A stretch of DNA of 64,000 nt from Nitrosopumilus sp. (GCA_965223425.1 OZ245003.1:2080001-2144000); one strand, 5' to 3'; positions 16,573 through 35,100 are shown, numbered from the stretch's first letter. The notes: generated by a model from the sequence alone, not told the origin. Made by a program: numbers and translations.

Positions 16573-17705
16573 TAGTGAATTGGATTAACAATCGCTCACA
16601 AAACAGACAACATTATTCAACCACAAGATCTAGATCCCAGTGTATGGCAGAATCCGCATGAAATACAACGATTCCATAGTAATACCGGCAGACAAAAGAT
16701 TCCTGTCCGGCGTCTCCAGTGTGCGCCTGCGCAGCATGCAAAAAAAGGAGACAGATCCCAGGGCCGCAGCAAGGCTGCTGGCATATGCCATGCGCAAGGA
16801 GGGCATGTCCATACGCCGGATATGCATGGCCCTCAACAGGTCATATTCCACAGTACGGGGCTGGCTTGTGCGCGCCGCACAGCTTGGCACCGACGGCAGA
16901 TACGACATCAAAAATGAAGGCGCGCCAAACAAGCTCGATCCGGAACAGATAGAACAGCTGCGCGCAGACCTGCTGGCAGGCCCGCGCAGTTGCGGCTTTG
17001 AGTCCGGAGTGTGGACGGCACCGCTGCTGGCCGCACACATCAGAAAAAAGTTCGGCGTGCAGTATGCCACTGTCAGCATATATGACATACTGCACAGGAT
17101 GGGCTTTTCGTGCAGAAAGCCGCGTCCAAAGCACCCAAGTCAGCCTCAGAATCAGAGAAAAAAAAGTTTAAAAAAAAGCAGGGGAGGTAATCCGGAGCCA
17201 TCCAGACCATACGGTGATTACAGTTGATGAGGCCTCCTTTATCATTGGGTGGAATACCAAGAACGGGTGGTACCCCAAGGGCAGGCCCGTCACCACTCCA
17301 GTCAGCCTGTCGCGCAAAAGGTTCTACTCGTTTGGGGCGCTGTACGACGGCGGCTTTGACTGCAGGTTCTATGCCAAGGCCAACAGCTACAGCTTTGTGG
17401 ACATGCTCGGACACCTGCATCTCAAGCACGGCAAGATCATCGTCTTTCTTGATAACGCATCGTACCACAAGTCAAAGATGGTCAATGATTTTGTCGACTC
17501 GTATGACGGCGACATAGTCCTTGTTTACTTGCCCGTGTACACCCCGGAGCTGAATACCACGGAGGGGCAGTGGAGGCTGTTAAGAAGGGCCACTGCAAAC
17601 GTGATGTATGAAAGTACAAAGGTGATGAAGGAATCCATATGGACAATGCTGGATAGACGTGAGGTCAGGATAACAAGGATGAGCGGTTATTTATCCTAGT
17701 CACTA
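16573..17705 (+). mobile_element. IS630-family element, copy 1 (transposase frameshifted: 16640-17227 and 17214-17699)
   Basis: Imperfect IR TAGTGAATTGGATTAACAATCGCTCA / TAGTGACTAGGATAAATAACCGCTCA; VDEASF, LDNASYHKS, YTPELNTTE; near-identical to 54104-55235. Confidence 0.93.
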
Positions 17706-18765: not shown

Positions 18766-19479
18766 TTGAAGATTAAGACAATCACAAACAAGCTGGACAA
18801 CTATCAAATCAAACTATCTACTAGTAATACAAAAAATCTTAACTTTATACTTGATGATTCTGGTGCAGGCTCTACATTGTTTGACAAACTCCATTCGTAT
18901 TTTTCCACAGGTCGCAACGATGTCTTGGATCTGGATCTGATTGAGAGAAAAAGATATGACATCAACCTTATGTTTGTAGAAGAATATCTGGATTACCATG
19001 ATCTTTTGGACTATTTTGTCACGATGGGATTTACAGATGAATTTTTGGAAATTTCTGAGAGTGCCAACCAGATATACACTAAAATGCTCTCCGAACACAA
19101 GACCGCAGGATGCGGCGGCTTTCTAAAACTGGAGAACAGCCAGATTATGGTTCCCAGATACCTCTCGGCACCAGAGGCAACACTGGCCTACTATGCACTG
19201 CTAATTGCAATAAGGAAAAGGTACAGAGTTGATCTGCCGTTGATAATTAACAGGTTTGGGCGCTGGGGTCTAAAGTATTGTCCGCTTGTAGTACGCACTC
19301 TTGCAGAGATTTCTCCCCAAACATTGATTTTTACAAGCGAGGGAAATTTTGGCGTATCCATGCATAACTATCGTACAGACAAAAAAATACCCTCGATACA
19401 TCAGACTATCAAAAATAAAACACTGGGTATGGCATATAGGTTGGACAAAGATGGAGTCTCAGAATACGTTCCGTTCTAG
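18766..19479 (+). CDS. Hypothetical protein resembling the C-terminal half of a DndD/SMC-like ATPase (degenerate motifs)
   Basis: LSAPEATLAYYALL (cf. LSAGE signature) and LPLIINRFGRW (cf. LPxxIDTPxGRLD Walker B/D-loop), then QTLIFTS. Confidence 0.45.
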   Translation: MKIKTITNKLDNYQIKLSTSNTKNLNFILDDSGAGSTLFDKLHSYFSTGRNDVLDLDLIERKRYDINLMFVEEYLDYHDLLDYFVTMGFTDEFLEISESANQIYTKMLSEHKTAGCGGFLKLENSQIMVPRYLSAPEATLAYYALLIAIRKRYRVDLPLIINRFGRWGLKYCPLVVRTLAEISPQTLIFTSEGNFGVSMHNYRTDKKIPSIHQTIKNKTLGMAYRLDKDGVSEYVPF

Positions 19480-19480
19480 G

Positions 19481-19790
19481 TCTCCGATATATCTTGATCA
19501 TCATGCAACAACTCCACGAGATCCACGTGCATTAGATGCAGTGATGCCGTCCTTACAGAAAAATTCGGTAATGCGTCAGGCATGGATCATCCTTTTGGAT
19601 ATGACGCATCAGGGGCAGTGGAATCTGCACGAGAAAAGATTACATGTGCAATCAATGCAAGACATGGTGGGATTGTTTTTACGTCAAGTGCCACAGAGTC
19701 AGACAGCATTGCGCTGATTGGGACGATGGAAAATGCAGGTATTGCGGGAATCATCCAACCACATGTGCCACAGAATAGTCAGCTCCTTGT
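19481..19790 (+). pseudogene. Cysteine desulfurase (IscS/DndA-like) 5' fragment, frameshifted and truncated
   Basis: IYLDHHATTP.DPR, then AVESAREKI...IVFTSSATESDSIAL in another frame. Confidence 0.85.
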
Positions 19791-19991
19791 TAAATCGGCC
19801 TATAGCCATTTTGAGCATGTTTTTTGGCCAAGGGATAGATCGCGCCGTACCGGAGAACCCATGAAAAGAAAAACCAACCCGGACAGGGGATCCAAGTTTC
19901 TGCCCGGCACAAGCATGCCCAGTGAAATTGAAAAATTATCAGGTTTGGCGATTTTAGTTGGAAAAAAATAGGGGAATAGCCCCAAGGGCTA

Positions 19992-20825
19992 TTAATTGTC
20001 ATCGACAGGTTTCTGGTCAGATTCGAACTCTTCTTCTAGAATCAGATATTGCTCTTCTAAAGGTGCCAACAGCCGTTCAAGTTCCATCTCTTGTTCTTCT
20101 GTTAATACCGGTTCTGCAATACCGAATTCTTGGAGAATTTTACTGTATTTTGAATCAAGTTCCTCCAGCTCTGCTTCTAGCTTCTGTTTCAGTTGGCCTG
20201 AAGGATCATTGAGAGTCATTTCTGCAGATATTTTTTCATACTGCTCATCAAGTGGAACAAGTCTTTGTGCAAGTTCGGCTTCTTGTTGCTCAGTTAGTTC
20301 CGGAGACGAGAATCCAAATTGCTCTAGAATTGCATGGTATTGCATGTCTAGTTCTTCAAATTTTGCTTCTAGTTCCGGCGGAATCCCATAGTGCTCAAAC
20401 CCGTCTGCTATCTCCCGGTATTGCTCATCTAATGAAGCAAGTTTGGCATCTAGCTGTCTTTCTTGCTCTCCGGTAAGCTCCGGCGTTACAAAGCCATACT
20501 TTTCAAAAATGGCGTCGTATTGAGCATCGAGTTTCTCATATTCTTGGTCCAGCTCCCAATACTTTTCATCTAATGAAGCAAGTTCTGCATCTAGCTGTCT
20601 TTCTTGCTCTCCGGTAAGCTCCGGCGTTACAAAGCCATACTTTTCAAGAATGGCGTCGTATTGAGCATCGAGTTTCTCATACAGTTTGTAAGTGCCAGGT
20701 TCTTCTGTTTCCTGTGCCTGTACTAGCTGTCCTGTTGCTACTGCAACTGCTACAAAAGCAAGCATTACGGCAAGGACAGGAAAGACAAATCGTTTGTTTT
20801 TGGAATATGTTGTGGTCATTTCCAA
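19992..20825 (-). CDS. Secreted acidic helical-repeat protein with four LTxxQ-like modules
   Basis: Signal peptide (KNKR + hydrophobic stretch + VQA); four units LDxQYxxILxxYGFxxPELTxEQExELxxxLxxLDEQY. Confidence 0.85.
   Translation of the reverse strand: MEMTTTYSKNKRFVFPVLAVMLAFVAVAVATGQLVQAQETEEPGTYKLYEKLDAQYDAILEKYGFVTPELTGEQERQLDAELASLDEKYWELDQEYEKLDAQYDAIFEKYGFVTPELTGEQERQLDAKLASLDEQYREIADGFEHYGIPPELEAKFEELDMQYHAILEQFGFSSPELTEQQEAELAQRLVPLDEQYEKISAEMTLNDPSGQLKQKLEAELEELDSKYSKILQEFGIAEPVLTEEQEMELERLLAPLEEQYLILEEEFESDQKPVDDN
20426..20681. repeat. Recent intragenic duplication, 141-bp period (modules 1 and 2)
   Basis: ~115-bp blocks at about 20426-20540 and 20567-20681 differ by only a few bases. 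Confidence 0.9.
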
Positions 20826-20841
20826 AGTCTCTTAGATTAGG

Positions 20842-20880
20842 TTTTATATGGCCTTGCCAATCCTGTTGCGGTATGGCAAT
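20842..20880 (-). promoter_or_regulatory. TATA-like box plus palindromic operator TTGC-GGTATG-GCAA upstream of the secreted repeat protein
   Basis: Minus-strand ATATAAAA at 20842-20849; 20-mer at 20861-20880 matches 24284-24303 at 18/20. Confidence 0.6.
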
Positions 20881-21730
20881 TGTTGATCAGGGTACGCATT
20901 ACGGAAATTTGCTGTCTTACAAATTTTACGTGCTTCCTACTGCAAAGAAGCTTTATGGCACTCTGAAACCAAAAACAAGGCACCACCAAAATATACAACA
21001 GCTGTTACAGGTGCTAGCGTTGCTTGGAACCTCCACTACTTGGGAGATGACAAAGAAAAGATTTCCTAACGATAACTCCAAGGTGCGCGAAAAAGAGAAA
21101 GAGTATCGCAGGCTGCTAGTCGGCAGGACAGACAGAGGAAGGCACTCTTCTGGCATTTTGGAGTTTGGGTTGGTTGTAAAAGACGGCAAAGTTCTGAGAT
21201 ATCCAGTATCTGACAGGTACAGACTATCACTTCACGGGGTGCTGTATTGTCTCAACATTTTTGATCTAAACAAAAAAGACGTTGACATTATTGCAGAAAA
21301 CTATGCCAGTGTGCTGCCCAAAGTTTTTGGCAAATGGAAATTTCTCAAATCAGTGATCGGGGACGACGTTTACAAGATTGGAATTCTGGCCAAAGGACTG
21401 CTTCTTGATAATCCAACGATTGTAAATAATGCAAGTAATCCACTTTACGAGCTGATGTCATATATTCACGTAAAATATCGCAGATATTTTGAGTCTATTT
21501 CAGAAAAGGATCTTGCAGATCAGATATCACTGTGGTTTTACACATACTTTCTTTATTATTCCCCAACGAGCACGAGGGCAAAAAAAGTCCCGCCGGGAAT
21601 TAAAGAATTGCAAGAGGTTTTGAATCGTGATTTTGAACTCAAAGAATGGTACATGAAATTTGTAGAAGAGGCAGGCAAATATTACAGAGACAGGGCAAGC
21701 ACAATCAAAAATTTCGGATTAATGCGATGA
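20873..21730 (+). CDS. Thaumarchaeal hypothetical protein, probable winged-helix DNA-binding protein
   Basis: ATG at 20873 (MAIVDQ) avoids overlap with the divergent gene; LLQVLALLGTSTTWEMTK...GLVVKDG...RYRLSLHGVL wHTH-like pattern. Confidence 0.6.
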   Translation: MAIVDQGTHYGNLLSYKFYVLPTAKKLYGTLKPKTRHHQNIQQLLQVLALLGTSTTWEMTKKRFPNDNSKVREKEKEYRRLLVGRTDRGRHSSGILEFGLVVKDGKVLRYPVSDRYRLSLHGVLYCLNIFDLNKKDVDIIAENYASVLPKVFGKWKFLKSVIGDDVYKIGILAKGLLLDNPTIVNNASNPLYELMSYIHVKYRRYFESISEKDLADQISLWFYTYFLYYSPTSTRAKKVPPGIKELQEVLNRDFELKEWYMKFVEEAGKYYRDRASTIKNFGLMR

Positions 21731-22144
21731 CTATCTGGCATGCCTTTTTATCATCTTTTCAAGACTCTTAAATTCAAGAGGCTTGTTCAGTAAACCTCTT
21801 AGCGATGTCTCTTTTGCATCACTGTACTTTTTGTCGTTTAACGCGTAACTGGACGTAAATACCACCCTTGCGTCTGGATCAAACTTGACTATTCTTGAAA
21901 AGGCCTCATAGCCGTCAATCTCAGGCATCTTTATGTCCATAAACATGATATCAGGCATGATTTCTCGATATCTTTCTACTGCCATTATCCCATCAGATGC
22001 AGTTTCCACATCAAAGCCCTTGTCAAGAAGCATTAGCTGGGTGGCCTCCAAAAAATCCACATCGTCGTCTGCAAAGAGAATCTTCTTGCCAGAATACACT
22101 AACTGCATCTCGCATCTTTTTTTGAGATAAATGTATCGTTGCAT
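21731..22144 (-). CDS. Stand-alone response regulator receiver (CheY-like)
   Basis: ILFADDD, phosphoacceptor in FMDIKMP, KP motif; no output domain. Confidence 0.93.
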   Translation of the reverse strand: MQRYIYLKKRCEMQLVYSGKKILFADDDVDFLEATQLMLLDKGFDVETASDGIMAVERYREIMPDIMFMDIKMPEIDGYEAFSRIVKFDPDARVVFTSSYALNDKKYSDAKETSLRGLLNKPLEFKSLEKMIKRHAR

Positions 22145-22146
22145 GT

Positions 22147-24177
22147 TTAGCCGTGCTGTCTTTTTGGGATACGTACCGTAAACGTTGCAGGATCTTGTCC
22201 CACAGTTATTTTTCCACGGTGCTGTTCTATGATGTTTTTGCAGCTAGACAATCCAAGGCCTGTTCCCTTTAGATGTGTAGTAAACAATGGCTCGAACAAT
22301 TTTGGCATCACATCATCTGGTATGCTTGGACCGTTGTTTTCAAAGATTATACGGATGTCTTGCTCTGCTTCTGCGATTCTGATGCTTACTGTTCCGTCTT
22401 TGCTGTTTCCGATTGCCTGAATTGCATTTAGCATCAGGTTTACAAAGGTAATCTCTAGTTTTTCCTGATCGCATTCTACTGTTATGTCATTTTTTGGAAG
22501 AATAACCTTGATGTTTCTTGGCACATCCACTGAGCCTCTGGCATAGTTTAGCATCTCTAGAATTGAGAACTCGTCAGTAATGAGAGGAGTTGTACGGACA
22601 TAGTTTAGCACTCCCTCCACTTGATGAGACATTCTTTTTACAGAGCGATTAATTCTTTTTATTTCGTCTGAAATTGCTTTATTTTGGCCTTTATTCTGAT
22701 CATGTATTCTTTCAGCCGAGCTTCTAATTGCGCCCAATGGATTTCTCATATCATGTGCGATGTTGGAGGACAAGTGTCCTATTGTGGACATTTGTTTGCT
22801 TTCGCTGATCTTTTGAGACTGCCTGTAGAATATTCTAGAGAACAGCACTCCAAGAATCGCAGCTGCGCCAGTCATTGCTATTGTGAGAAACAATAGCGAA
22901 TCTCTTTGAGAGTTGACGTCTTGCAAAATTTCGTCCATTTCAGTATGAACTGCCAAGATCCAGTCAGAGCCTGCAAAATCATGGTAGCCCCTCTGCCTGG
23001 AATATGAATACAGTATCTCATTTTCTTGATCCGAGTCTACTATTGAGAATCCCTTTTCCCCAAATGTAAAATCTAGATCATATTTTTCGTAGATCTCTTC
23101 ATATTTTGACTCGATCTCAGCTATCTTCTCGTCAAATTCTAGCTGTTTTCCCCCTGATAGTGTCGGCACTACAAACCCATACTCTTGCAAAATCTCATCA
23201 TACTGCAAGTCCAGTCCTAGCATCTGTTCTTCCAGCTGCCTTTCTTGGTTTTCAGCAGTCTCTCCAAATTCGTATTCTTTTAAGATATCTTCATATTGTC
23301 GGTCAAGTGGAAGGAATCTTTCTTCAATCTCTTCCAATTGCTTCTCTGATAGTTCCGGTTCTATGTATCCATATTCGCGTATTGTTGCATCATACTGTTC
23401 ATCTAGTTTCTCCAGTTCTTCCTCAATGTCATGATGAACCCCCCCGAACCCAAACATAAAATCCGAAATGGCATGATCTTCTTGCCCATCTGTTGTAGAA
23501 TAAAGCAAGAATCCCCCATTATCAAAAAGATCAAACTCAGATGAGGCAAATTGTGACTGTTCCTTTGACTCTTCTATCAGCATAATTATCTCTTGGAAGC
23601 TGACTAGAGCATGAAGGGAGCCAATTGCCTGTCCTTTTGTATCTGTGACTAAAATTCCAAGATGATAATTGTCTTCATCAAGCATTGGATCATAGTAAAC
23701 GTCACTCAGAGACATTTCAGACTCTTTGATTTCTTCTATTGGCATCTCTCTGAAAAAACTGGCAACATTATTGTTACCAGACGAGGCAATCGTCTTGCCA
23801 TCAAGATTTAGCAATGTTATGTTTTCATAAGTCCCATAGTCAGATTCTTTATTGTCAATGGAAATCTTTTCGCTTAGTCTGTTTGAAATTATTTTGTTTT
23901 CGGAAGGTTGCTCAGTCCTGTTTGCTAAAATCAGGGCATTTTGAATCACAGGTTCTTTTCCAATCTTGTTCAAGTCAGAGATTTTATTTGCAATTGAGAT
24001 ATCTATCTTGTTTAGTGCATTAAATGCAACAGTAGTGGATTGCCGTCCTACCAACTGGTTGATGGTGTCTTTTGAAATATTTGCCGAAACGTATCCTATA
24101 ATTCCCGTAAACGATGCCATGACAATAAACGAAATCAGCAAGGAAACGATCAGTTTTTTATTTTCTTTGATTTGCAT
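22147..24177 (-). CDS. Membrane sensor histidine kinase; Cache-like extracellular region with inserted acidic repeat
   Basis: Two TM helices; IAHDMRNPL H-box, NLMLNAIQA N-box, FEPLFTT, GTGLGL. Confidence 0.93.
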   Translation of the reverse strand: MQIKENKKLIVSLLISFIVMASFTGIIGYVSANISKDTINQLVGRQSTTVAFNALNKIDISIANKISDLNKIGKEPVIQNALILANRTEQPSENKIISNRLSEKISIDNKESDYGTYENITLLNLDGKTIASSGNNNVASFFREMPIEEIKESEMSLSDVYYDPMLDEDNYHLGILVTDTKGQAIGSLHALVSFQEIIMLIEESKEQSQFASSEFDLFDNGGFLLYSTTDGQEDHAISDFMFGFGGVHHDIEEELEKLDEQYDATIREYGYIEPELSEKQLEEIEERFLPLDRQYEDILKEYEFGETAENQERQLEEQMLGLDLQYDEILQEYGFVVPTLSGGKQLEFDEKIAEIESKYEEIYEKYDLDFTFGEKGFSIVDSDQENEILYSYSRQRGYHDFAGSDWILAVHTEMDEILQDVNSQRDSLLFLTIAMTGAAAILGVLFSRIFYRQSQKISESKQMSTIGHLSSNIAHDMRNPLGAIRSSAERIHDQNKGQNKAISDEIKRINRSVKRMSHQVEGVLNYVRTTPLITDEFSILEMLNYARGSVDVPRNIKVILPKNDITVECDQEKLEITFVNLMLNAIQAIGNSKDGTVSIRIAEAEQDIRIIFENNGPSIPDDVMPKLFEPLFTTHLKGTGLGLSSCKNIIEQHRGKITVGQDPATFTVRIPKRQHG

Positions 24178-24264
24178 CTCTAATCAACATCGACAGTCTT
24201 GGGTTATGCCTCAACGAAAAATGGCAGTTTTGCAAATTCGTTCAACTAAATTTATCTTTGAGAG

Positions 24265-24303
24265 TAATATATCAATTAATGATTCCTCTTGCGGTATGGC
24301 AGT
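24265..24303 (-). promoter_or_regulatory. TATA-like box plus operator TTGC-GGTATG-GCAG upstream of the kinase
   Basis: Minus-strand ATATATTA at 24265-24272; same offset to the 20-mer as at 20842-20880. Confidence 0.55.
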
Positions 24304-24507
24304 TTTTTATTTACAAAACACAAGGGATGCACAGAGGGCTGGACTGATGTGCGTGCTGCTACCAGTTGGCAGTGTATTTCAACTGCATGACTGACAGCGA
24401 CATCCAAGAAGCGCCAAGATAATGGTTTGCAGTTAGAGATATTTTTTGGAAGGAATTATGCCCAATCCTCAGATATCTACAAATATTACCTTTTTTTTTG
24501 GTAGTAT

Positions 24508-24987
24508 ATGGGCGCGCTCAAGAAGGTTGGAATCATACTAGCTGTGATTGTGGCAGTGATAATATCAATTGCAGCTACTGCGTTTTACCTGGCAGTAGAG
24601 GAGGTTAAGAACGTCATGGATCACGTTCCTGCCAATGACGAGCTAGAGCGCACCAGCCTGAAAAGCGTGCCTCACATGGAGCTGCTCGAAAACGTCGACT
24701 TGTACCTTGGGGAGACAGTCCGGTACCAAGGAACCGTCATGCAGTCAACTAGCATCGATGATGACACGTACGCGGTACTTGTGGAGGTCGACGGAGGACT
24801 AGTAGAGCTGATTGTTCAGGGCCAACCGCTGGATAAATACAGTCATGTTGACTTTTTTGGCAGAATCATCGGGAGCAACCAAAGATCCTCATCAATCGAT
24901 CCTGCAGTAGACACACTCAACCTTGACTTGCTGAGCATGATCCGGTACGCAGCACCATTGGAGATGCAGACAGTCCCAGATACATGA
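24508..24987 (+). CDS. Membrane-anchored hypothetical protein (OB-fold-like soluble part)
   Basis: N-terminal TM; YLGETVRYQGTVMQ...VDFFGRIIG pattern. Confidence 0.6.
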   Translation: MGALKKVGIILAVIVAVIISIAATAFYLAVEEVKNVMDHVPANDELERTSLKSVPHMELLENVDLYLGETVRYQGTVMQSTSIDDDTYAVLVEVDGGLVELIVQGQPLDKYSHVDFFGRIIGSNQRSSSIDPAVDTLNLDLLSMIRYAAPLEMQTVPDT

Positions 24988-26124: not shown

Positions 26125-29100
26125 CTATCTGTCTCCGTGCACGTTCCCGTATCTTGCATCCCGCAGCTGCTCCATGAGCCTCGTGTGCTCTGCCATATTC
26201 CTGTCAAACGCGTCGCACAGCCTGTTCTCCACGTCGGTACACGCAGTACTTACTATAAATTCGGGGCCGTCCACGTAATACCACGTACCAAATCCGTTCT
26301 TGGTCCAGGTGTACCCGAACTGGTCGATCCACATGTCGTTTATCTTGTCGGTCCTTACAAGCTCGTAGGGTTCTACATCAGACTGGGATGCGAACTTTGT
26401 TATCAGTGTTACAGTCGGTGCCGGGTTCATCGAGTCACCGGCTATTGTTATGCCATCGTTCATGTAGTGGTTTGTGACGCGTCTCTTCGTGTCTACGGCC
26501 TGTATGACAAACGGCTCGTTGTGCATCTGCTCCCGGAATAGTACGCCTGCTATGTCAAGCTGGACACATCTCTCCAGTGTGGAATCAGGCATGCATTTTA
26601 CGGCAGAGACTGCAAACGTCGCGTTCTGGCCTATGACCATGTCTTCGTTCTGGTACGACACGGAATCTATGACATATGTTGATGTGGTGTTATAGTCCCT
26701 TGTCAGATACACCCTGATCAACGCCTCGGCATCATTAAGAGGACTGCCTACGTCAGGCACGCCAAAGCCGATTGAGAAGAACTTCATTCCCTTTGGTGCA
26801 AACGTCTTTAATGTAAAGTTGTGTACAAAGCCAGTTTGTAGCTCTTGTAGTGGATTATCTACAACGTACGATAATACGTCCTTGCATATTCCATCCATAG
26901 AGTAGCCACATGAGACTATCTGTGCATAAGTATTCCAAGACTTGCCAAAAGTTGGGCGAGTTTTGTGCTCATCAGAATTGCCAGATTTGCCTCTAGGAAC
27001 ATCTGACACTGGAACACCATCATCCGAAGGATCTTCTAGATTCTCATTTGGGTTCTCAGGTAAGTTTGGGTCAGATGGATTCTCATTTGGGTTCTCAGGT
27101 AAGTTTGGGTCAGGTGGATTCTCATTTGGGTTCTCAGGTAAGTTTGGGTCAGGTGGATTCTCATTTGGGTTCTCAGGTAAGTTTGGGTCAGGTGGATTCT
27201 CATTTGGGTTCTCAGGTAAGTTTGGGTCAGGTGGATTGTCGACTACGTGGTAGGTTCTGCTCTTTTGCATGGCAGGGTTTGTGCCGTCAGTGGAGTTGTA
27301 GCCGATGACGTAATCGCCCACGACATTAGTGTCGACCGTGCCAGTGGTGGTGACTGCAGAACCGTCGTCAGTTGTGACGCCATCAAGGAGGTCAGGCGAG
27401 TCAGCACCAAGCTCCAGCGTTATCTCGTCTGGAATCACGGTGATCACGGGGGCTGTGGTGTCGACTACGTGGTAGGTTCTGCTCTTTTGCATGGCAGGGT
27501 TTGTGCCGTCAGTGGAGTTGTAGCCGATGACGTAATCGCCCACGACATTAGTGTCGACCGTGCCAGTGGTGGTGACTGCAGAATTATCGTCAGTTGTGAC
27601 GCCATCAAGGAGGTCAGGCGAGTCAGCACCAAGCTCCAGCGTTATCTCGTCTGGAATCACGGTGATCACGGGGGCTGTGGTGTCGACTACGTGGTAGGTT
27701 CTGCTCTTTTGCATGGCAGGGTTTGTGCCGTCAGTGGAGTTGTAGCCGATGACGTAATCGCCCACGACATTAGTGTCGACCGTGCCAGTGGTGGTGACTG
27801 CAGAATTATCGTCAGTTGTGACGCCATCAAGGAGGTCAGGCGAGTCAGCACCAAGCTCCAGCGTTATCTCGTCTGGAATCACGGTGATCACGGGGGCTGT
27901 GGTGTCGACTACGTGGTAGGTTCTGCTCTTTTGCATGGCAGGGTTTGTGCCGTCAGTGGAGTTGTAGCCGATGACGTAATCGCCCACGACATTAGTGTCG
28001 ACCGTGCCAGTGGTGGTGACTGCAGAATTATCGCTAGTTGTGACGCCATCAAGGAGGTCAGGCGAGTCAGCACCAAGCTCCAGCGTTATCTCGTCTGGAA
28101 TCACGGTGATCACGGGGGCTGTGGTGTCGACTACGTGGTAGGTTCTGCTCTTTTGCATGGCAGGGTTTGTGCCGTCAGTGGAGTTGTAGCCGATGACGTA
28201 ATCGCCCACGACATTAGTGTCGACCGTGCCAGTGGTGGTGACTGCAGAATTATCGCTAGTTGTGACGCCATCAAGGAGGTCAGGCGAGTCAGCACCAAGC
28301 TCCAGCGTTATCTCGTCTGGAATCACGGTGATCACGGGGGCTGTGGTGTCGACTACGTGGTAGGTTCTGCTCTTTTGCATGGCAGGGTTTGTGCCGTCAG
28401 TGGAGTTGTAGCCGATGACGTAATCGCCCACGACATTAGTGTCGACCGTGCCAGTGGTGGTGACTGCAGAACCGTCGTCAGTTGTGACGCCATCAAGGAG
28501 GTCAGGCGAGTCAGCACCAAGCTCCAGCGTTATCTCGTCTGGAATCACGGTGATCACGGGGGCTGTGGTGTCGACTACGTGGTAGGTTCTGCTCTTTTGC
28601 ATGGCAGGGTTTGTGCCGTCAGTGGAGTCGTAACGTATGATATATTCACCTACGGTGCCGGTGTCGACCGTGCCAGTGGTGGTGACTGCAGAACCGTCGT
28701 CAGTTGTGACGCCATCAAGGAGGTCAGGCGAGTCAGCACCAAGCTCCAGCGTTATCTCGTCTGGAATCACGGTGATCACGGGGGCTGTGGTGTCGACTAC
28801 GTGGTAGGTTCTGCTCTTTTGCATGGCAGGGTTTGTGCCGTCAGTGGAGTCGTAACGTATGATATATTCACCTACGGTGCCGGTGTCGACCGTGCCAGTG
28901 GTGGTGACTGCAGAATTATCGTCAGTTGTGACGCCATCAAGGAGGTCAGGCGAGTCAGCACCAAGCTCCAGCGTTATCTCGTCTGGAATCACGGTGATCA
29001 CGGGGGCTGTGGTGTCGACTACGTGGTAGGTTCTGCTCTTTTGCATGGCAGGGTTTGTGCCGTCAGTGGAGTCGTAACGTATGATATATTCACCTACGGT

Positions 29101-32100
29101 GCCGGTGTCGACCGTGCCAGTGGTGGTGACTGCAGAATTATCGTCAGTTGTGACGCCATCAAGGAGGTCAGGCGAGTCAGCACCAAGCTCCAGCGTTATC
29201 TCGTCTGGAATCACGGTGATCACGGGGGCTGTGGTGTCGACTACGTGGTAGGTTCTGCTCTTTTGCATGGCAGGGTTTGTGCCGTCAGTGGAGTTGTAGC
29301 CGATGACGTAATCGCCCACGACATTAGTGTCGACCGTGCCAGTGGTGGTGACTGCAGAATTATCGTCAGTTGTGACGCCATCAAGGAGGTCAGGCGAGTC
29401 AGCACCAAGCTCCAGCGTTATCTCGTCTGGAATCACGGTGATCACGGGGGCTGTGGTGTCGACTACGTGGTAGGTTCTGCTCTTTTGCATGGCAGGGTTT
29501 GTGCCGTCAGTGGAGTTGTAGCCGATGACGTAATCGCCCACGACATTAGTGTCGACCGTGCCAGTGGTGGTGACTGCAGAATTATCGTCAGTTGTGACGC
29601 CATCAAGGAGGTCAGGCGAGTCAGCACCAAGCTCCAGCGTTATCTCGTCTGGAATCACGGTGATCACGGGGGCTGTGGTGTCGACTACGTGGTAGGTTCT
29701 GCTCTTTTGCATGGCAGGGTTTGTGCCGTCAGTGGAGTCGTAACGTATGATATATTCACCTACGGTGCCGGTGTCGACCGTGCCAGTGGTGGTGACTGCA
29801 GAACCGTCGTCAGTTGTGACGCCATCAAGGAGGTCAGGCGAGTCAGCACCAAGCTCCAGCGTTATCTCGTCTGGAATCACGGTGATCACGGGGGCTGTGG
29901 TGTCGACTACGTGGTAGGTTCTGCTCTTTTGCATGGCAGGGTTTGTGCCGTCAGTGGAGTTGTAGCCGATGACGTAATCGCCCACGACATTAGTGTCGAC
30001 CGTGCCAGTGGTGGTGACTGCAGAATTATCGTCAGTTGTGACGCCATCAAGGAGGTCAGGCGAGTCAGCACCAAGCTCCAGCGTTATCTCGTCTGGAATC
30101 ACGGTGATCACGGGGGCTGTGGTGTCGACTACGTGGTAGGTTCTGCTCTTTTGCATGGCAGGGTTTGTGCCGTCAGTGGAGTCGTAACGTATGATATATT
30201 CACCTACGGTGCCGGTGTCGACCGTGCCAGTGGTGGTGACTGCAGAATTATCGTCAGTTGTGACGCCATCAAGGAGGTCAGGCGAGTCAGCACCAAGCTC
30301 CAGCGTTATCTCGTCTGGAATCACGGTGATCACGGGGGCTGTGGTGTCGACTACGTGGTAGGTTCTGCTCTTTTGCATGGCAGGGTTTGTGCCGTCAGTG
30401 GAGTTGTAGCCGATGACGTAATCGCCCACGACATTAGTGTCGACCGTGCCAGTGGTGGTGACTGCAGAATTATCGTCAGTTGTGACGCCATCAAGGAGGT
30501 CAGGCGAGTCAGCACCAAGCTCCAGCGTTATCTCGTCTGGAATCACGGTGATCACGGGGGCTGTGGTGTCGACTACGTGGTAGGTTCTGCTCTTTTGCAT
30601 GGCAGGGTTTGTGCCGTCAGTGGAGTTGTAGCCGATGACGTAATCGCCCACGACATTAGTGTCGACCGTGCCAGTGGTGGTGACTGCAGAATTATCGTCA
30701 GTTGTGACGCCATCAAGGAGGTCAGGCGAGTCAGCACCAAGCTCCAGCGTTATCTCGTCTGGAATCACGGTGATCACGGGGGCTGTGGTGTCGACTACGT
30801 GGTAGGTTCTGCTCTTTTGCATGGCAGGGTTTGTGCCGTCAGTGGAGTCGTAACGTATGATATATTCACCTACGGTGCCGGTGTCGACCGTGCCAGTGGT
30901 GGTGACTGCAGAATTATCGTCAGTTGTGACGCCATCAAGGAGGTCAGGCGAGTCAGCACCAAGCTCCAGCGTTATCTCGTCTGGAATCACGGTGATCACG
31001 GGGGCTGTGGTGTCGACTACGTGGTAGGTTCTGCTCTTTTGCATGGCAGGGTTTGTGCCGTCAGTGGAGTTGTAGCCGATGACGTAATCGCCCACGACAT
31101 TAGTGTCGACCGTGCCAGTGGTGGTGACTGCAGAACCGTCGTCAGTTGTGACGCCATCAAGGAGGTCAGGCGAGTCAGCACCAAGCTCCAGCGTTATCTC
31201 GTCTGGAATCACGGTGATCACGGGGGCTGTGGTGTCGACTACGTGGTAGGTTCTGCTCTTTTGCATGGCAGGGTTTGTGCCGTCAGTGGAGTCGTAACGT
31301 ATGATATATTCACCTACGGTGCCGGTGTCGACCGTGCCAGTGGTGGTGACTGCAGAATTATCGTCAGTTGTGACGCCATCAAGGAGGTCAGGCGAGTCAG
31401 CACCAAGCTCCAGCGTTATCTCGTCTGGAATCACGGTGATCACGGGGGCTGTGGTGTCGACTACGTGGTAGGTTCTGCTCTTTTGCATGGCAGGGTTTGT
31501 GCCGTCAGTGGAGTTGTAGCCGATGACGTAATCGCCCACGACATTAGTGTCGACCGTGCCAGTGGTGGTGACTGCAGAACCGTCGTCAGTTGTGACGCCA
31601 TCAAGGAGGTCAGGCGAGTCAGCACCAAGCTCCAGCGTTATCTCGTCTGGAATCACGGTGATCACGGGGGCTGTGGTGTCGACTACGTGGTAGGTTCTGC
31701 TCTTTTGCATGGCAGGGTTTGTGCCGTCAGTGGAGTTGTAGCCGATGACGTAATCGCCCACGACATTAGTGTCGACCGTGCCAGTGGTGGTGACTGCAGA
31801 ACCGTCGTCAGTTGTGACGCCATCAAGGAGGTCAGGCGAGTCAGCACCAAGCTCCAGCGTTATCTCGTCTGGAATCACGGTGATCACGGGGGCTGTGGTG
31901 TCGACTACGTGGTAGGTTCTGCTCTTTTGCATGGCAGGGTTTGTGCCGTCAGTGGAGTCGTAACGTATGATATATTCACCTACGGTGCCGGTGTCGACCG
32001 TGCCAGTGGTGGTGACTGCAGAATTATCGTCAGTTGTGACGCCATCAAGGAGGTCAGGCGAGTCAGCACCAAGCTCCAGCGTTATCTCGTCTGGAATCAC

Positions 32101-35100
32101 GGTGATCACGGGGGCTGTGGTGTCGACTACGTGGTAGGTTCTGCTCTTTTGCATGGCAGGGTTTGTGCCGTCAGTGGAGTTGTAGCCGATGACGTAATCG
32201 CCCACGACATTAGTGTCGACCGTGCCAGTGGTGGTGACTGCAGAACCGTCGTCAGTTGTGACGCCATCAAGGAGGTCAGGCGAGTCAGCACCAAGCTCCA
32301 GCGTTATCTCGTCTGGAATCACGGTGATCACGGGGGCTGTGGTGTCGACTACGTGGTAGGTTCTGCTCTTTTGCATGGCAGGGTTTGTGCCGTCAGTGGA
32401 GTCGTAACGTATGATATATTCACCTACGGTGCCGGTGTCGACCGTGCCAGTGGTGGTGACTGCAGAATTATCGTCAGTTGTGACGCCATCAAGGAGGTCA
32501 GGCGAGTCAGCACCAAGCTCCAGCGTTATCTCGTCTGGAATCACGGTGATCACGGGGGCTGTGGTGTCGACTACGTGGTAGGTTCTGCTCTTTTGCATGG
32601 CAGGGTTTGTGCCGTCAGTGGAGTTGTAGCCGATGACGTAATCGCCCACGACATTAGTGTCGACCGTGCCAGTGGTGGTGACTGCAGAACCGTCGTCAGT
32701 TGTGACGCCATCAAGGAGGTCAGGCGAGTCAGCACCAAGCTCCAGCGTTATCTCGTCTGGAATCACGGTGATCACGGGGGCTGTGGTGTCGACTACGTGG
32801 TAGGTTCTGCTCTTTTGCATGGCAGGGTTTGTGCCGTCAGTGGAGTCGTAACGTATGATATATTCACCTACGGTGCCGGTGTCGACCGTGCCAGTGGTGG
32901 TGACTGCAGAATTATCGTCAGTTGTGACGCCATCAAGGAGGTCAGGCGAGTCAGCACCAAGCTCCAGCGTTATCTCGTCTGGAATCACGGTGATCACGGG
33001 GGCTGTGGTGTCGACTACGTGGTAGGTTCTGCTCTTTTGCATGGCAGGGTTTGTGCCGTCAGTGGAGTTGTAGCCGATGACGTAATCGCCCACGACATTA
33101 GTGTCGACCGTGCCAGTGGTGGTGACTGCAGAACCGTCGTCAGTTGTGACGCCATCAAGGAGGTCAGGCGAGTCAGCACCAAGCTCCAGCGTTATCTCGT
33201 CTGGAATCACGGTGATCACGGGGGCTGTGGTGTCGACTACGTGGTAGGTTCTGCTCTTTTGCATGGCAGGGTTTGTGCCGTCAGTGGAGTTGTAGCCGAT
33301 GACGTAATCGCCCACGACATTAGTGTCGACCGTGCCAGTGGTGGTGACTGCAGAATTATCGTCAGTTGTGACGCCATCAAGGAGGTCAGGCGAGTCAGCA
33401 CCAAGCTCCAGCGTTATCTCGTCTGGAATCACGGTGATCACGGGGGCTGTGGTGTCGACTACGTGGTAGGTTCTGCTCTTTTGCATGGCAGGGTTTGTGC
33501 CGTCAGTGGAGTTGTAGCCGATGACGTAATCGCCCACGACATTAGTGTCGACCGTGCCAGTGGTGGTGACTGCAGAACCGTCGTCAGTTGTGACGCCATC
33601 AAGGAGGTCAGGCGAGTCAGCACCAAGCTCCAGCGTTATCTCGTCTGGAATCACGGTGATCACGGGGGCTGTGGTGTCGACTACGTGGTAGGTTCTGCTC
33701 TTTTGCATGGCAGGGTTTGTGCCGTCAGTGGAGTCGTAACGTATGATATATTCACCTACGGTGCCGGTGTCGACCGTGCCAGTGGTGGTGACTGCAGAAT
33801 TATCGTCAGTTGTGACGCCATCAAGGAGGTCAGGCGAGTCAGCACCAAGCTCCAGCGTTATCTCGTCTGGAATCACGGTGATCACGGGGGCTGTGGTGTC
33901 GACTACGTGGTAGGTTCTGCTCTTTTGCATGGCAGGGTTTGTGCCGTCAGTGGAGTTGTAGCCGATGACGTAATCGCCCACGACATTAGTGTCGACCGTG
34001 CCAGTGGTGGTGACTGCAGAATTATCGTCAGTTGTGACGCCATCAAGGAGGTCAGGCGAGTCAGCACCAAGCTCCAGCGTTATCTCGTCTGGAATCACGG
34101 TGATCACGGGGGCTGTGGTGTCGACTTGTAGATCAAAAAAATCCAAATCAATTATCTGGACGCCGTGATCACCAAAACTAGTAACAAGGGCGTACGTGCT
34201 GTTATCTACTATTGATGTGACAATATCACGCGGATTATTAAGAGTATCAAAGGATATTCCATTAGTGGCTCGACCGTCACGGAACGACGTGACGGGAACC
34301 GGTGTCATGGGATTGCTGATGTAGATTATCTGGACGCCGTTGTCACGAATACTTGCGACAAGGGCGTACGTGCCTGACCCTATTTTGGTAGTGGTAATGG
34401 CATATGAACCAGCAAGCGTATCAAAGGTCTTGCCACCAACCGTTTCGCCGTCAATGGCCGATGCAACCGGAACCGGCTCGCTGGGCTCGCTGATGTCGAT
34501 TATCTGGACGCCGTTGTCACTACCTTGACTTGCGACAAGGGCGTACGTGCTGTTATCTATTTTAATAGTGGTGATGTCGCGTGGAATGGTGAGTGTGTCA
34601 AAGGGCATTCCATTAGCGCCGTTTTGACCATCACGGAACGATATGACGGGAACCGGTGTCTTGGGATTGCTGATGTCGATTATCTGGACGCCGTTGTCAC
34701 TAGTACTTGTGACAAGGGCGTACGTGCCTGACCCTATTTTGGTAGTGGTAATGGCATATGGATCAGCAAGCGTATCAAAGGTCTTGCCATCAATCTCTGT
34801 GCCGTTAACAGCTGACGCAACCGGAACCGGTAAAAGAGGATTGCTGATGTCGATTATCTGGACGCCGTGATCATGAATACTTGTGACAAGGGCGTACGTG
34901 CCTGACCCTATTTTGGTAGTGGTAATGGCATATGGACTAGCAAGCGTATCAAAGGTCTTGCCACCAACCGTTTCGCCGTCAATGGCCGATGCAACCGGAA
35001 CCGGCTCGCTGGGCTCGCTGATGTCGATTATCTGAACGCCGTTGTCAATAAAACTAGTGACAAGGGCGTACGTGCTGTTATCTATTTTAATAGTGGTGAT

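Follow-up and report, generated by a model that had tools for sequence, protein, structure and literature searches.

ZraP binds zinc and represses ZraSR. In the CpxP-CpxA pair the accessory protein acts on the sensor kinase (PMC4160245). Almost nothing is known of the inputs of archaeal two-component systems or of how receiver-only regulators reach promoters, especially in the ammonia-oxidising archaea that dominate marine nitrification. In Thaumarchaeota about 75% of response regulators consist of a receiver alone, for which action via protein contacts is expected (PMC5847659). The QarABC system of Haloferax, the most recent archaeal one returned by the literature search, responds to an unidentified secreted signal (PMC13464002) and has an architecture unrelated to the locus reported here. 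That locus is a four-gene cassette in a 64,000-nucleotide stretch of Nitrosopumilus sp. (GCA_965223425.1 OZ245003.1:2080001-2144000), which we call the window and whose coordinates count from its first letter. The genes lie within positions 19992-24310 and encode a secreted acidic repeat protein, a divergent 285-residue open reading frame (ORF), a receiver and a sensor histidine kinase. The finding is a two-component system with a co-encoded extracytoplasmic accessory protein, the latter from a previously unannotated repeat family. As read from its sequence, the cassette is probably a self-contained, autoregulated envelope-signalling unit of a few Nitrosopumilaceae. The host genome (G000) comprises 2.64 Mb in two contigs with a G+C content of 0.415; that of the cassette is 0.40.

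The likeness to CpxP and ZraP is one of circuit layout and not of family, since the family tests given below all fail and the proteins are polyanionic. As in CpxP-CpxA/CpxR, a small exported all-helical protein is encoded beside, and divergently from, a two-component system, and the accessory gene and kinase operon seem to be under common control, which is suggested here by a shared promoter element. In contrast to CpxP, to which it has no detectable sequence or fold relationship, the exported protein is polyanionic. Furthermore, the accessory module is also present inside the sensor ectodomain, the regulator is a receiver without a DNA-binding output domain, and the host is an archaeon without an outer membrane. 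ZraP-ZraS/ZraR is similar in that the accessory gene is divergent from the kinase-regulator operon, and an accessory protein and sensor answering to the same cation would be the model that we prefer. The ZraP system differs in that no family relationship was detected, there is no sigma-54 activator here and the window protein has no conserved His-rich site; His/Cys-rich tails are present in some orthologues only. A keyword search of the literature, supplements not covered, returned neither the repeat family nor any kinase from archaea whose sensor part incorporates a module of the accessory type.

The secreted protein consists of four copies of one repeat unit and the kinase carries two copies between its transmembrane (TM) helices, in agreement with the original prediction, although the unit is about 50 residues long here and had been put at about 45. 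In the secreted protein the four strong units (residues 46-95, 93-142, 153-202 and 217-266) gave hidden Markov model (HMM) domain scores of 73-92 bits, with degenerate half-units in between. The strong units of the kinase (residues 252-301 and 316-365) scored 73 and 76 bits and have a degenerate one between them. Alignment of 39 units from seven genomes over 50 columns yielded the consensus L..Y..I...YGF..P.LTEEQE.E....LA.L...Y, in which G19, P23 and L25 are nearly invariant. This pattern describes a predicted helix, a G-F-x-x-P loop and a second helix opening with a T/S-x-x-E/Q cap.

Comparison of the two proteins by BLASTP with composition adjustment gave E=4e-20, and a second segment of 107 residues, 36% identical, aligned at E=5e-18. 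With an HMM that contained the four secreted units and no kinase unit, we screened every stop-to-stop ORF of the 2.64-Mb genome with a minimum length of 50 residues (19,401 ORFs). This HMM matched the secreted protein (2e-108) and the kinase (5e-19) and no other ORF. The kinase insert scored 77.5 bits versus a mean of -2.9 (standard deviation 3.8) and a maximum of 16.4 for 2,000 shuffles of its residues. The similarity thus does not collapse to an acidic coiled-coil bias. At the level of sequence it is confirmed that the secreted protein and the kinase carry one homologous extracytoplasmic module, beyond what composition would produce.

The kinase is arranged as TM1 (approximately residues 9-32), a dCache-like ectodomain with the repeat insert, TM2 (approximately 426-450), a dimerization and histidine phosphotransfer domain and a catalytic domain, with both strong units located between the TM helices. 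Its H-box SNIAHDMRNPL is invariant in 11 kinase orthologues and it belongs to the HisKA class. The dCache_1 profile (PF02743) matched residues 57-242 at E=7e-5, covering profile positions 21-196 of 240, with 22.9 bits against a cut-off of 45; it matched 8 of the 11 orthologues at E<=0.01, the best at 3.8e-8. The structure model of the kinase (mean predicted local distance difference test, pLDDT, of 61) is of use for topology only. It contains two strand/helix modules after a long helix, in the order TM1, helices 36-112, module 117-207, strands 214-227, four helices 244-365, strands 375-413 and TM2. The insert helices (244-268, 278-304, 309-332 and 342-365; pLDDT 75-83) are placed between strands 223-227 and 375-381.

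Ten paralogous Cache kinases align over the whole ectodomain and have just about 6-8 residues where the 128-residue insert sits, so that the insert is the derived state. By sequence comparison and by the model, the units are thus predicted to interrupt the membrane-proximal module of a dCache-like domain, where they are inserted between strands 2 and 3. In the model, the kinase shares with dCache kinases the succession of a TM helix, a long helix, two alpha/beta modules and a second TM helix; it differs in that the acidic four-helix insert of about 128 residues replaces a short helical link between these strands. No HAMP domain was detected in the window kinase, although the insert-free paralogues have one after TM2. 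Cache domains are reported as rare in archaea outside Methanomicrobia (PMC5847659). The insert has a net charge of -29 over 128 residues and a pI (isoelectric point) of 4.05, compared to a crude median pI of 6.9 for the host proteome. Identity to three tiers of orthologues was 0.68, 0.36 and 0.27 within the insert and 0.65, 0.37 and 0.26 in the remaining N-terminal ectodomain. These values show the insert to be as conserved as the remainder of the ectodomain, in line with sequence constraint.

For the secreted protein, whose ORF counts 277 residues from TTG 20825, the true start is more likely ATG 20819, giving MTTTYSKNKRF, since homologues P0002-P0010 begin likewise. A K/R-rich start is followed by about 20 hydrophobic residues and then by VQA directly before QE, a pattern that is kept in the homologues and reads as a signal peptide. 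AlphaFold models the protein as entirely helical, with a mean pLDDT of 69 (70-90 in the mature part). The mature protein has a pI of 4.05, as has the kinase insert, and carries a net charge of -47 over 240 residues. Some orthologues (P0006-P0010) end in tails rich in His, Cys, Asp and Glu. The protein atlas gave no usable match for the secreted protein, and neither Pfam nor NCBIfam assigns it to a family.

The original prediction had called the module LTxxQ-like. The literal motif is indeed present at helix starts, as LTGEQ, LTGEQ, LTEQQ and LTEEQ in the secreted protein and LSEKQ and LSGGKQ in the kinase, but membership of the family did not hold up by Pfam, hhalign, Foldseek or PDB profile. 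LTxxQ by itself is a common helix N-cap pattern. Neither the secreted protein nor the kinase matched LTXXQ (PF07813) or Metal_resist (PF13801) in Pfam at E<=1, and there was no NCBIfam match. Searched against PDB sequences, the unit profile found designed coiled coils only, at E>=8e-4, and no CpxP, Spy or ZraP at E<=10. With hhalign, a template of three sequences (E. coli CpxP, Spy and ZraP) gave probabilities of 2.5% for the units, over 17 columns at the LTxEQ helix cap, and 0.4% for the whole protein. Foldseek comparison of the secreted-protein model, which is of moderate confidence, with the PDB returned no match at E<=0.001; the best had E=0.88 with TM-scores of at most 0.2, and Spy, CpxP and ZraP were not among the 50 matches listed.

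Weak transitive links do exist, as the unit profile reaches repeat proteins with type IX secretion system (T9SS) tails at E=1e-6 to 5e-4. One of the linking proteins, P0107, scores 30.5 bits on Metal_resist (cut-off 29.2), and P0068 and P0102 score 18.5 bits on LTXXQ (cut-off 24.3). A remote member of the CpxP/Spy/ZraP superfamily acting as a periplasmic-type chaperone for misfolded or basic proteins could be imagined on the basis of these very weak links and of the L-T/S-x-x-Q/E that opens the second helix of each unit. Considering the failed searches and the strongly acidic charge, we regard this as highly improbable.

The repeat unit is a previously unannotated family. Searched against 5.8 billion proteins, the secreted protein retrieved 11 relatives at E<=0.001, with lengths of 152-485 residues, and the kinase insert retrieved 7 relatives of 371-1183 residues, all of them kinases. 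The unit profile matched 97 of 1.84 billion cluster representatives at E<=1e-3; of these, 56 pass E<=1e-10 and 16 pass E<=1e-30. The majority of the 97 have lengths of 140-600 residues, are hydrophobic near the N-terminus and contain 2-10 units, and in three, which are kinases, two units occupy the corresponding position. Weak Pfam matches of homologues (EAD9, Unstab_antitox, HMG_box and others) were inconsistent and mostly without a passing domain, and were therefore taken to be noise from helix caps or coiled coils.

A second, more basic family of secreted repeats of about 40 residues was noticed among remote matches of the unit profile (P0053, P0059, P0068, P0073, P0091 and P0107). Its pattern is ...YGF..P.LT.EQR..I......GAS.EEI... 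and some members have T9SS sorting tails. The relationship to the archaeal unit is weak (E=1e-16 to 5e-4).

The pairing of kinase and secreted protein recurs in other genomes, as the original prediction required of a real system. In a survey of 401 genomes of the family, in which orthologous kinase ectodomains were called at E<=1e-12, the secreted protein had a match in 12. The orthologous kinase was found in seven (G000, G269, G022, G078, G095, G037 and G012), all of which also hold a secreted relative of 270-340 residues. The tallies for the kinase and for the 285-residue family take in one unpublished genome (G206), on which no individual statement depends. In G000, G022 and G269, which represent two genera, the four genes are adjacent and in the same order. 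Identities of the cassette proteins in G022 and G269 are 45-51% for kinase and secreted protein, 65-68% for the 285-residue ORF and 75-80% for the receiver. These three genomes have in common the four cassette genes only; the flanking 3-6 kb are unrelated. In the four genomes of genus g13 the kinase and the secreted protein are present and unlinked; on a single chromosome the kinase maps to about 1.03 Mb, the homologue of the 285-residue ORF to about 1.51 Mb and the secreted protein to about 1.74 Mb (a spread of 0.7 Mb). Metagenome assemblies suggest more cassettes (P0013/P0123, P0014/P0125, P0015/P0126, P0016/P0134, P0018/P0127 and P0003/P0017), since both members of each pair have an equal 'longest contig' size.

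A repeat search revealed that 27 nucleotides upstream of the secreted-protein gene resemble 27 nucleotides upstream of the kinase gene. In copy 1 the TATA-like sequence TTTTATAT (20842-20849) is followed, after a gap of 16 nucleotides, by the 13-mer TTGCGGTATGGCA (20866-20878), which encloses ATG 20873. Copy 2 consists of TAATATAT (24265-24272), again a 16-nucleotide gap, and TTGCGGTATGGCA (24289-24301). In the whole 2.64 Mb there are exactly two copies of the 13-mer, those at 20866 and 24289 of the window, and G022 and G269 likewise have exactly two each, at both cassette promoters. When the six sites are aligned, a GT, a TATAT and the 13-mer are invariant and the spacing is fixed; the general form is a TATA box with TGCGGYATGGC about 17 nucleotides on. 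The ATG of the motif in copy 1 is the start codon of the 285-residue ORF, and the secreted-protein gene starts 23 nucleotides beyond the other side of the TATA box. Copy 2 points away from the kinase, 88 nucleotides from the kinase ATG. No conserved gene or small ORF follows it, the downstream ORFs being unrelated in G000, G022 and G269, where its ATG opens just 32, 3 and an unconserved number of codons.

In G037 and G012 the three dispersed genes each have TGCGGCATGGC about 17 nucleotides after a TATA-like box, in the same orientation. The element faces away from the kinase and secreted-protein genes in g13 and overlies the start codon of the homologue of the 285-residue ORF. Since the 11-mer has just 14 copies in 2.0 Mb there, its presence in all three of the specific 300-bp upstream regions is far beyond chance. 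We read the element as a putative common operator or promoter uniting three transcription units. An element this rare and shared points to one regulatory circuit, and we consider it likely that the kinase and the secreted protein belong to the same one.

An excess of the 11-mer core in G000 (25 matches versus 2 in the control) was considered as a sign of a regulon and rejected, as it is due to a dispersed repeat family: 21 copies lie in this unrelated repeat, 2 are isolated and 2 are the cassette sites. The repeat, which is near-identical over at least about 90 nucleotides, is found at 21 places on contig C1 (e.g. 65768, 329816, 368286 and 595949), none in the window. It holds TGCGGTATGGC, has no TATA box and could be a miniature inverted-repeat transposable element or an insertion-sequence end. 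In G037 a TATA-like box with TGCGGCATGGC was observed at three more sites, L076 around 1535 (+), L070 around 1480 (-) and L077 around 4349 (+). They adjoin a secreted Beta_propel protein (PF09826, 3e-41), an adenylate/guanylate cyclase gene (PF00211, 1e-15) and one unassigned place. The regulon may extend to these three sites, which serve as leads only, their spacing being less regular.

The receiver stands alone, as had been claimed: Response_reg extends over residues 22-133 of 137, the DDD, MDIKMP, T/S and K positions are visible and there is no output domain, so that the protein is receiver-only. It begins 2 nucleotides past the kinase stop codon and is translationally coupled to the kinase. 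The gene described by the original prediction as divergent and putatively DNA-binding is present as an ORF, divergent from the secreted-protein gene and convergent with the receiver gene, but the DNA-binding label is not confirmed, the ORF having no match in Pfam, NCBIfam or the PDB. Its uncharacterised family is specific to Nitrososphaerota and counts 554 proteins; each of the 120 that were listed is 'hypothetical' or unnamed and lacks a Pfam domain. Organism names, where given, are limited to Nitrosopumilus, Nitrosarchaeum and Nitrosotalea. The protein atlas gave Nitrososphaerota-only clusters and a weak feature-based lead (0.81) to Penicillinase_R clusters, the sole hint of a winged helix. 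We propose that the product may be a regulator and thus a candidate for the DNA-binding output, because of the position of the gene, the element over its start codon and the need of receiver-only regulators for partners (PMC5847659). The archaeal receiver-only systems of Galperin et al. (2018, PMC5847659) are similar in that the receiver lies beside a gene for a possible DNA-binding partner. In those systems an ArsR/HTH_20 protein is encoded divergently from the receiver gene; here the adjacent gene belongs to an unannotated family and is convergent with the receiver gene.

In the mechanism that we favor the acidic module would be the sensing surface. The phosphorylated receiver would act via a protein partner, most simply the product of the 285-residue ORF, which would bind the shared element, repress its own gene and control the secreted protein as well as the kinase operon. 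In the compartment that it shares with the sensor, the exported protein would most likely compete for, or buffer, the sensor's cationic ligand, be it a divalent metal, a transition metal or some other cation, and less likely dock on the homologous module of the kinase. Either mode would close a feedback loop of the CpxP or ZraP type. Competition for a cation is preferred because of the charge and the His/Cys/Asp/Glu-rich tails of some orthologues; direct docking comes second in our order of preference and a role as pure output third. The full statement, in which the secreted arm shares a ligand with the sensor or docks on it and the loop is closed, is a tentative one that we place just short of probable.

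If docking applies, the secreted protein would bind the two-unit insert by repeat-on-repeat packing of hairpins, perhaps with cations as bridges, and switch the kinase on or off in the way of CpxP and CpxA, a pair that provides a precedent (PMC4160245). The module is common to both proteins, which are assigned to the same compartment, consecutive units pack as helical hairpins in both models, and the genes appear co-regulated via the shared element. However, with net charges of -47 and -29 both partners are strongly negative, which disfavors unassisted contact, units of the same genome are not more similar to each other than those of different genomes, and the unit also occurs in proteins that have no kinase partner. 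We therefore consider docking unlikely. A complex prediction for kinase ectodomain residues 36-415 with secreted residues 44-272 gave a score of 0.00 and a mark of 0.32, without controls, and speaks neither for nor against binding. In an extension of the docking idea, which we hold to be quite improbable, the secreted protein would be a diffusible self-made cue, the level or cation-loaded state of which is read by the kinase through homotypic docking, with self-amplification via TGCGGYATGGC. If true, ammonia-oxidising archaea would possess an autocrine or quorum-type signal made of protein, detected by a kinase whose ectodomain is paralogous to the signal itself.

Several results weigh against the proposed circuit or parts of it. 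The secreted protein of the window holds just 2 His and no Cys, so that a transition-metal site is not evident. No helix-turn-helix or winged helix-turn-helix was detected in the 285-residue ORF with Pfam, NCBIfam or PDB sequences, the latter searched with the single sequence and a 7-sequence profile. The family of this ORF is present in 108 of the 401 genomes, often in several copies and mostly without the kinase or the secreted protein, and is therefore not specific to the cassette. In g13 the kinase has no adjacent receiver gene, and since the genomes are kin, the co-occurrence rests on about three independent lineages. The element could also be a duplicated promoter bound by another factor or the driver of a non-coding RNA. 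Identity between kinase and secreted units was 0.386 within the same genome versus 0.362 across genomes, which gives no sign of co-evolution at this coarse level. The metagenomic protein P0051 (698 residues) combines a signal peptide and two units with a complete M9 collagenase (Peptidase_M9_N 3e-43, Peptidase_M9 7e-92), and longer multi-repeat secreted relatives are encoded in five other genomes without a kinase or receiver nearby. The unit is thus a portable extracytoplasmic module that is not intrinsically devoted to signalling.

Some of these observations fit a simpler role in which the secreted protein is only a regulated product, such as a cation buffer, a chaperone or a protein of the envelope or S-layer space, and the kinase insert is an old domain capture from the same repeat family that senses something else, so that the two would have no functional contact. 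The unit belongs to a general family of secreted repeats in which kinases make up 3 of the 97 representatives (E<=1e-3) and which has also been fused to a collagenase. The insertion into the kinase is old, since kinase and secreted units share 35-50% identity with no same-genome excess; gene conversion or co-evolution between them was considered and dropped for want of a signal. Against a mere output role, kinase and secreted protein are kept together in 7 of 7 genomes, in four of them unlinked, both genes keep the same promoter element, and the insert is conserved like a sensory domain. We regard this explanation as doubtful and favor the shared circuit, with competition for a cation as its most likely mode.

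The cassette provides a compact testable case in which a defined extracytoplasmic module is present both in a sensor and in an exported protein that is apparently co-regulated with it. A candidate operator, 11-13 bp long, is retained in all three genera, also where the genes are scattered, and the candidate partner protein comes from a family of 554 members that has no known function. Should the secreted arm indeed modulate the sensor, it would be the first archaeal counterpart of accessory control of the CpxP/ZraP type, with the accessory module built into the sensor.

Table 1. Positions in the window of the cassette genes, their repeat units, the promoter element and neighbouring features.
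Feature	Position	Strand	Basis
Secreted acidic repeat protein	19992..20825	-	ORF; 277 aa counted from TTG 20825
Four strong units, secreted protein	20541-20690, 20400-20549, 20220-20369, 20028-20177	-	hmmsearch, 73-92 bits each
Divergent 285-aa ORF	20873..21730	+	Conserved start ATG 20873
Receiver-only response regulator, 137 aa	21731..22144	-	Pfam Response_reg 5.2e-20
Sensor histidine kinase, 676 aa	22147..24177	-	Pfam HisKA 7.8e-11, HATPase_c 1.6e-20
Repeat insert, kinase ectodomain residues 245-372	23062..23445	-	hmmsearch and structure model
Two strong units, kinase	23275-23424, 23083-23232	-	hmmsearch, 73 and 76 bits
Promoter element copy 1, between secreted-protein gene and 285-aa ORF	20842..20878	+	Sequence, 13-mer search
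Promoter element copy 2, upstream of kinase-receiver operon	24265..24301	+	Sequence, 13-mer search
IS630-type transposase, two overlapping frames	16640-17699	+	HTH_33, HTH_32, HTH_29 (frame 1); DDE_3 (frame 2)
Class-V aminotransferase pieces, two frames	19349-19971	+	Aminotran_5 E=5e-5
159-aa ORF	24508-24987	+	
3,510-aa ORF	26125-36657	-	
2,294-aa mirror ORF	27247-34131	+	

The surroundings of the cassette contain further features (Table 1). The IS630-type transposase is located 2.3 kb from it. The aminotransferase pieces, which are cysteine-desulfurase-like and match Aminotran_5 over profile positions 35-82 only, adjoin the 3' end of the secreted-protein gene and look like a gene remnant. The 159-residue ORF, located downstream of the kinase-side promoter copy, has a membrane helix at its N-terminus and matches no Pfam family; neither G022 nor G269 has an equivalent at this position. 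The 3,510-residue ORF has a signal-like N-terminus and begins with about nine beta-propeller-like repeats of about 70 residues. These are followed by about 35 near-identical tandem repeats of about 69 residues (TTAPVITVIPDEITLELGADSPDLLDGVTTDD...), a PNENP-rich stretch and a C-terminal domain. The G+C content in this stretch reaches 0.56, compared to 0.415 for the genome, and the 2,294-residue mirror ORF probably owes its existence to the repeat.

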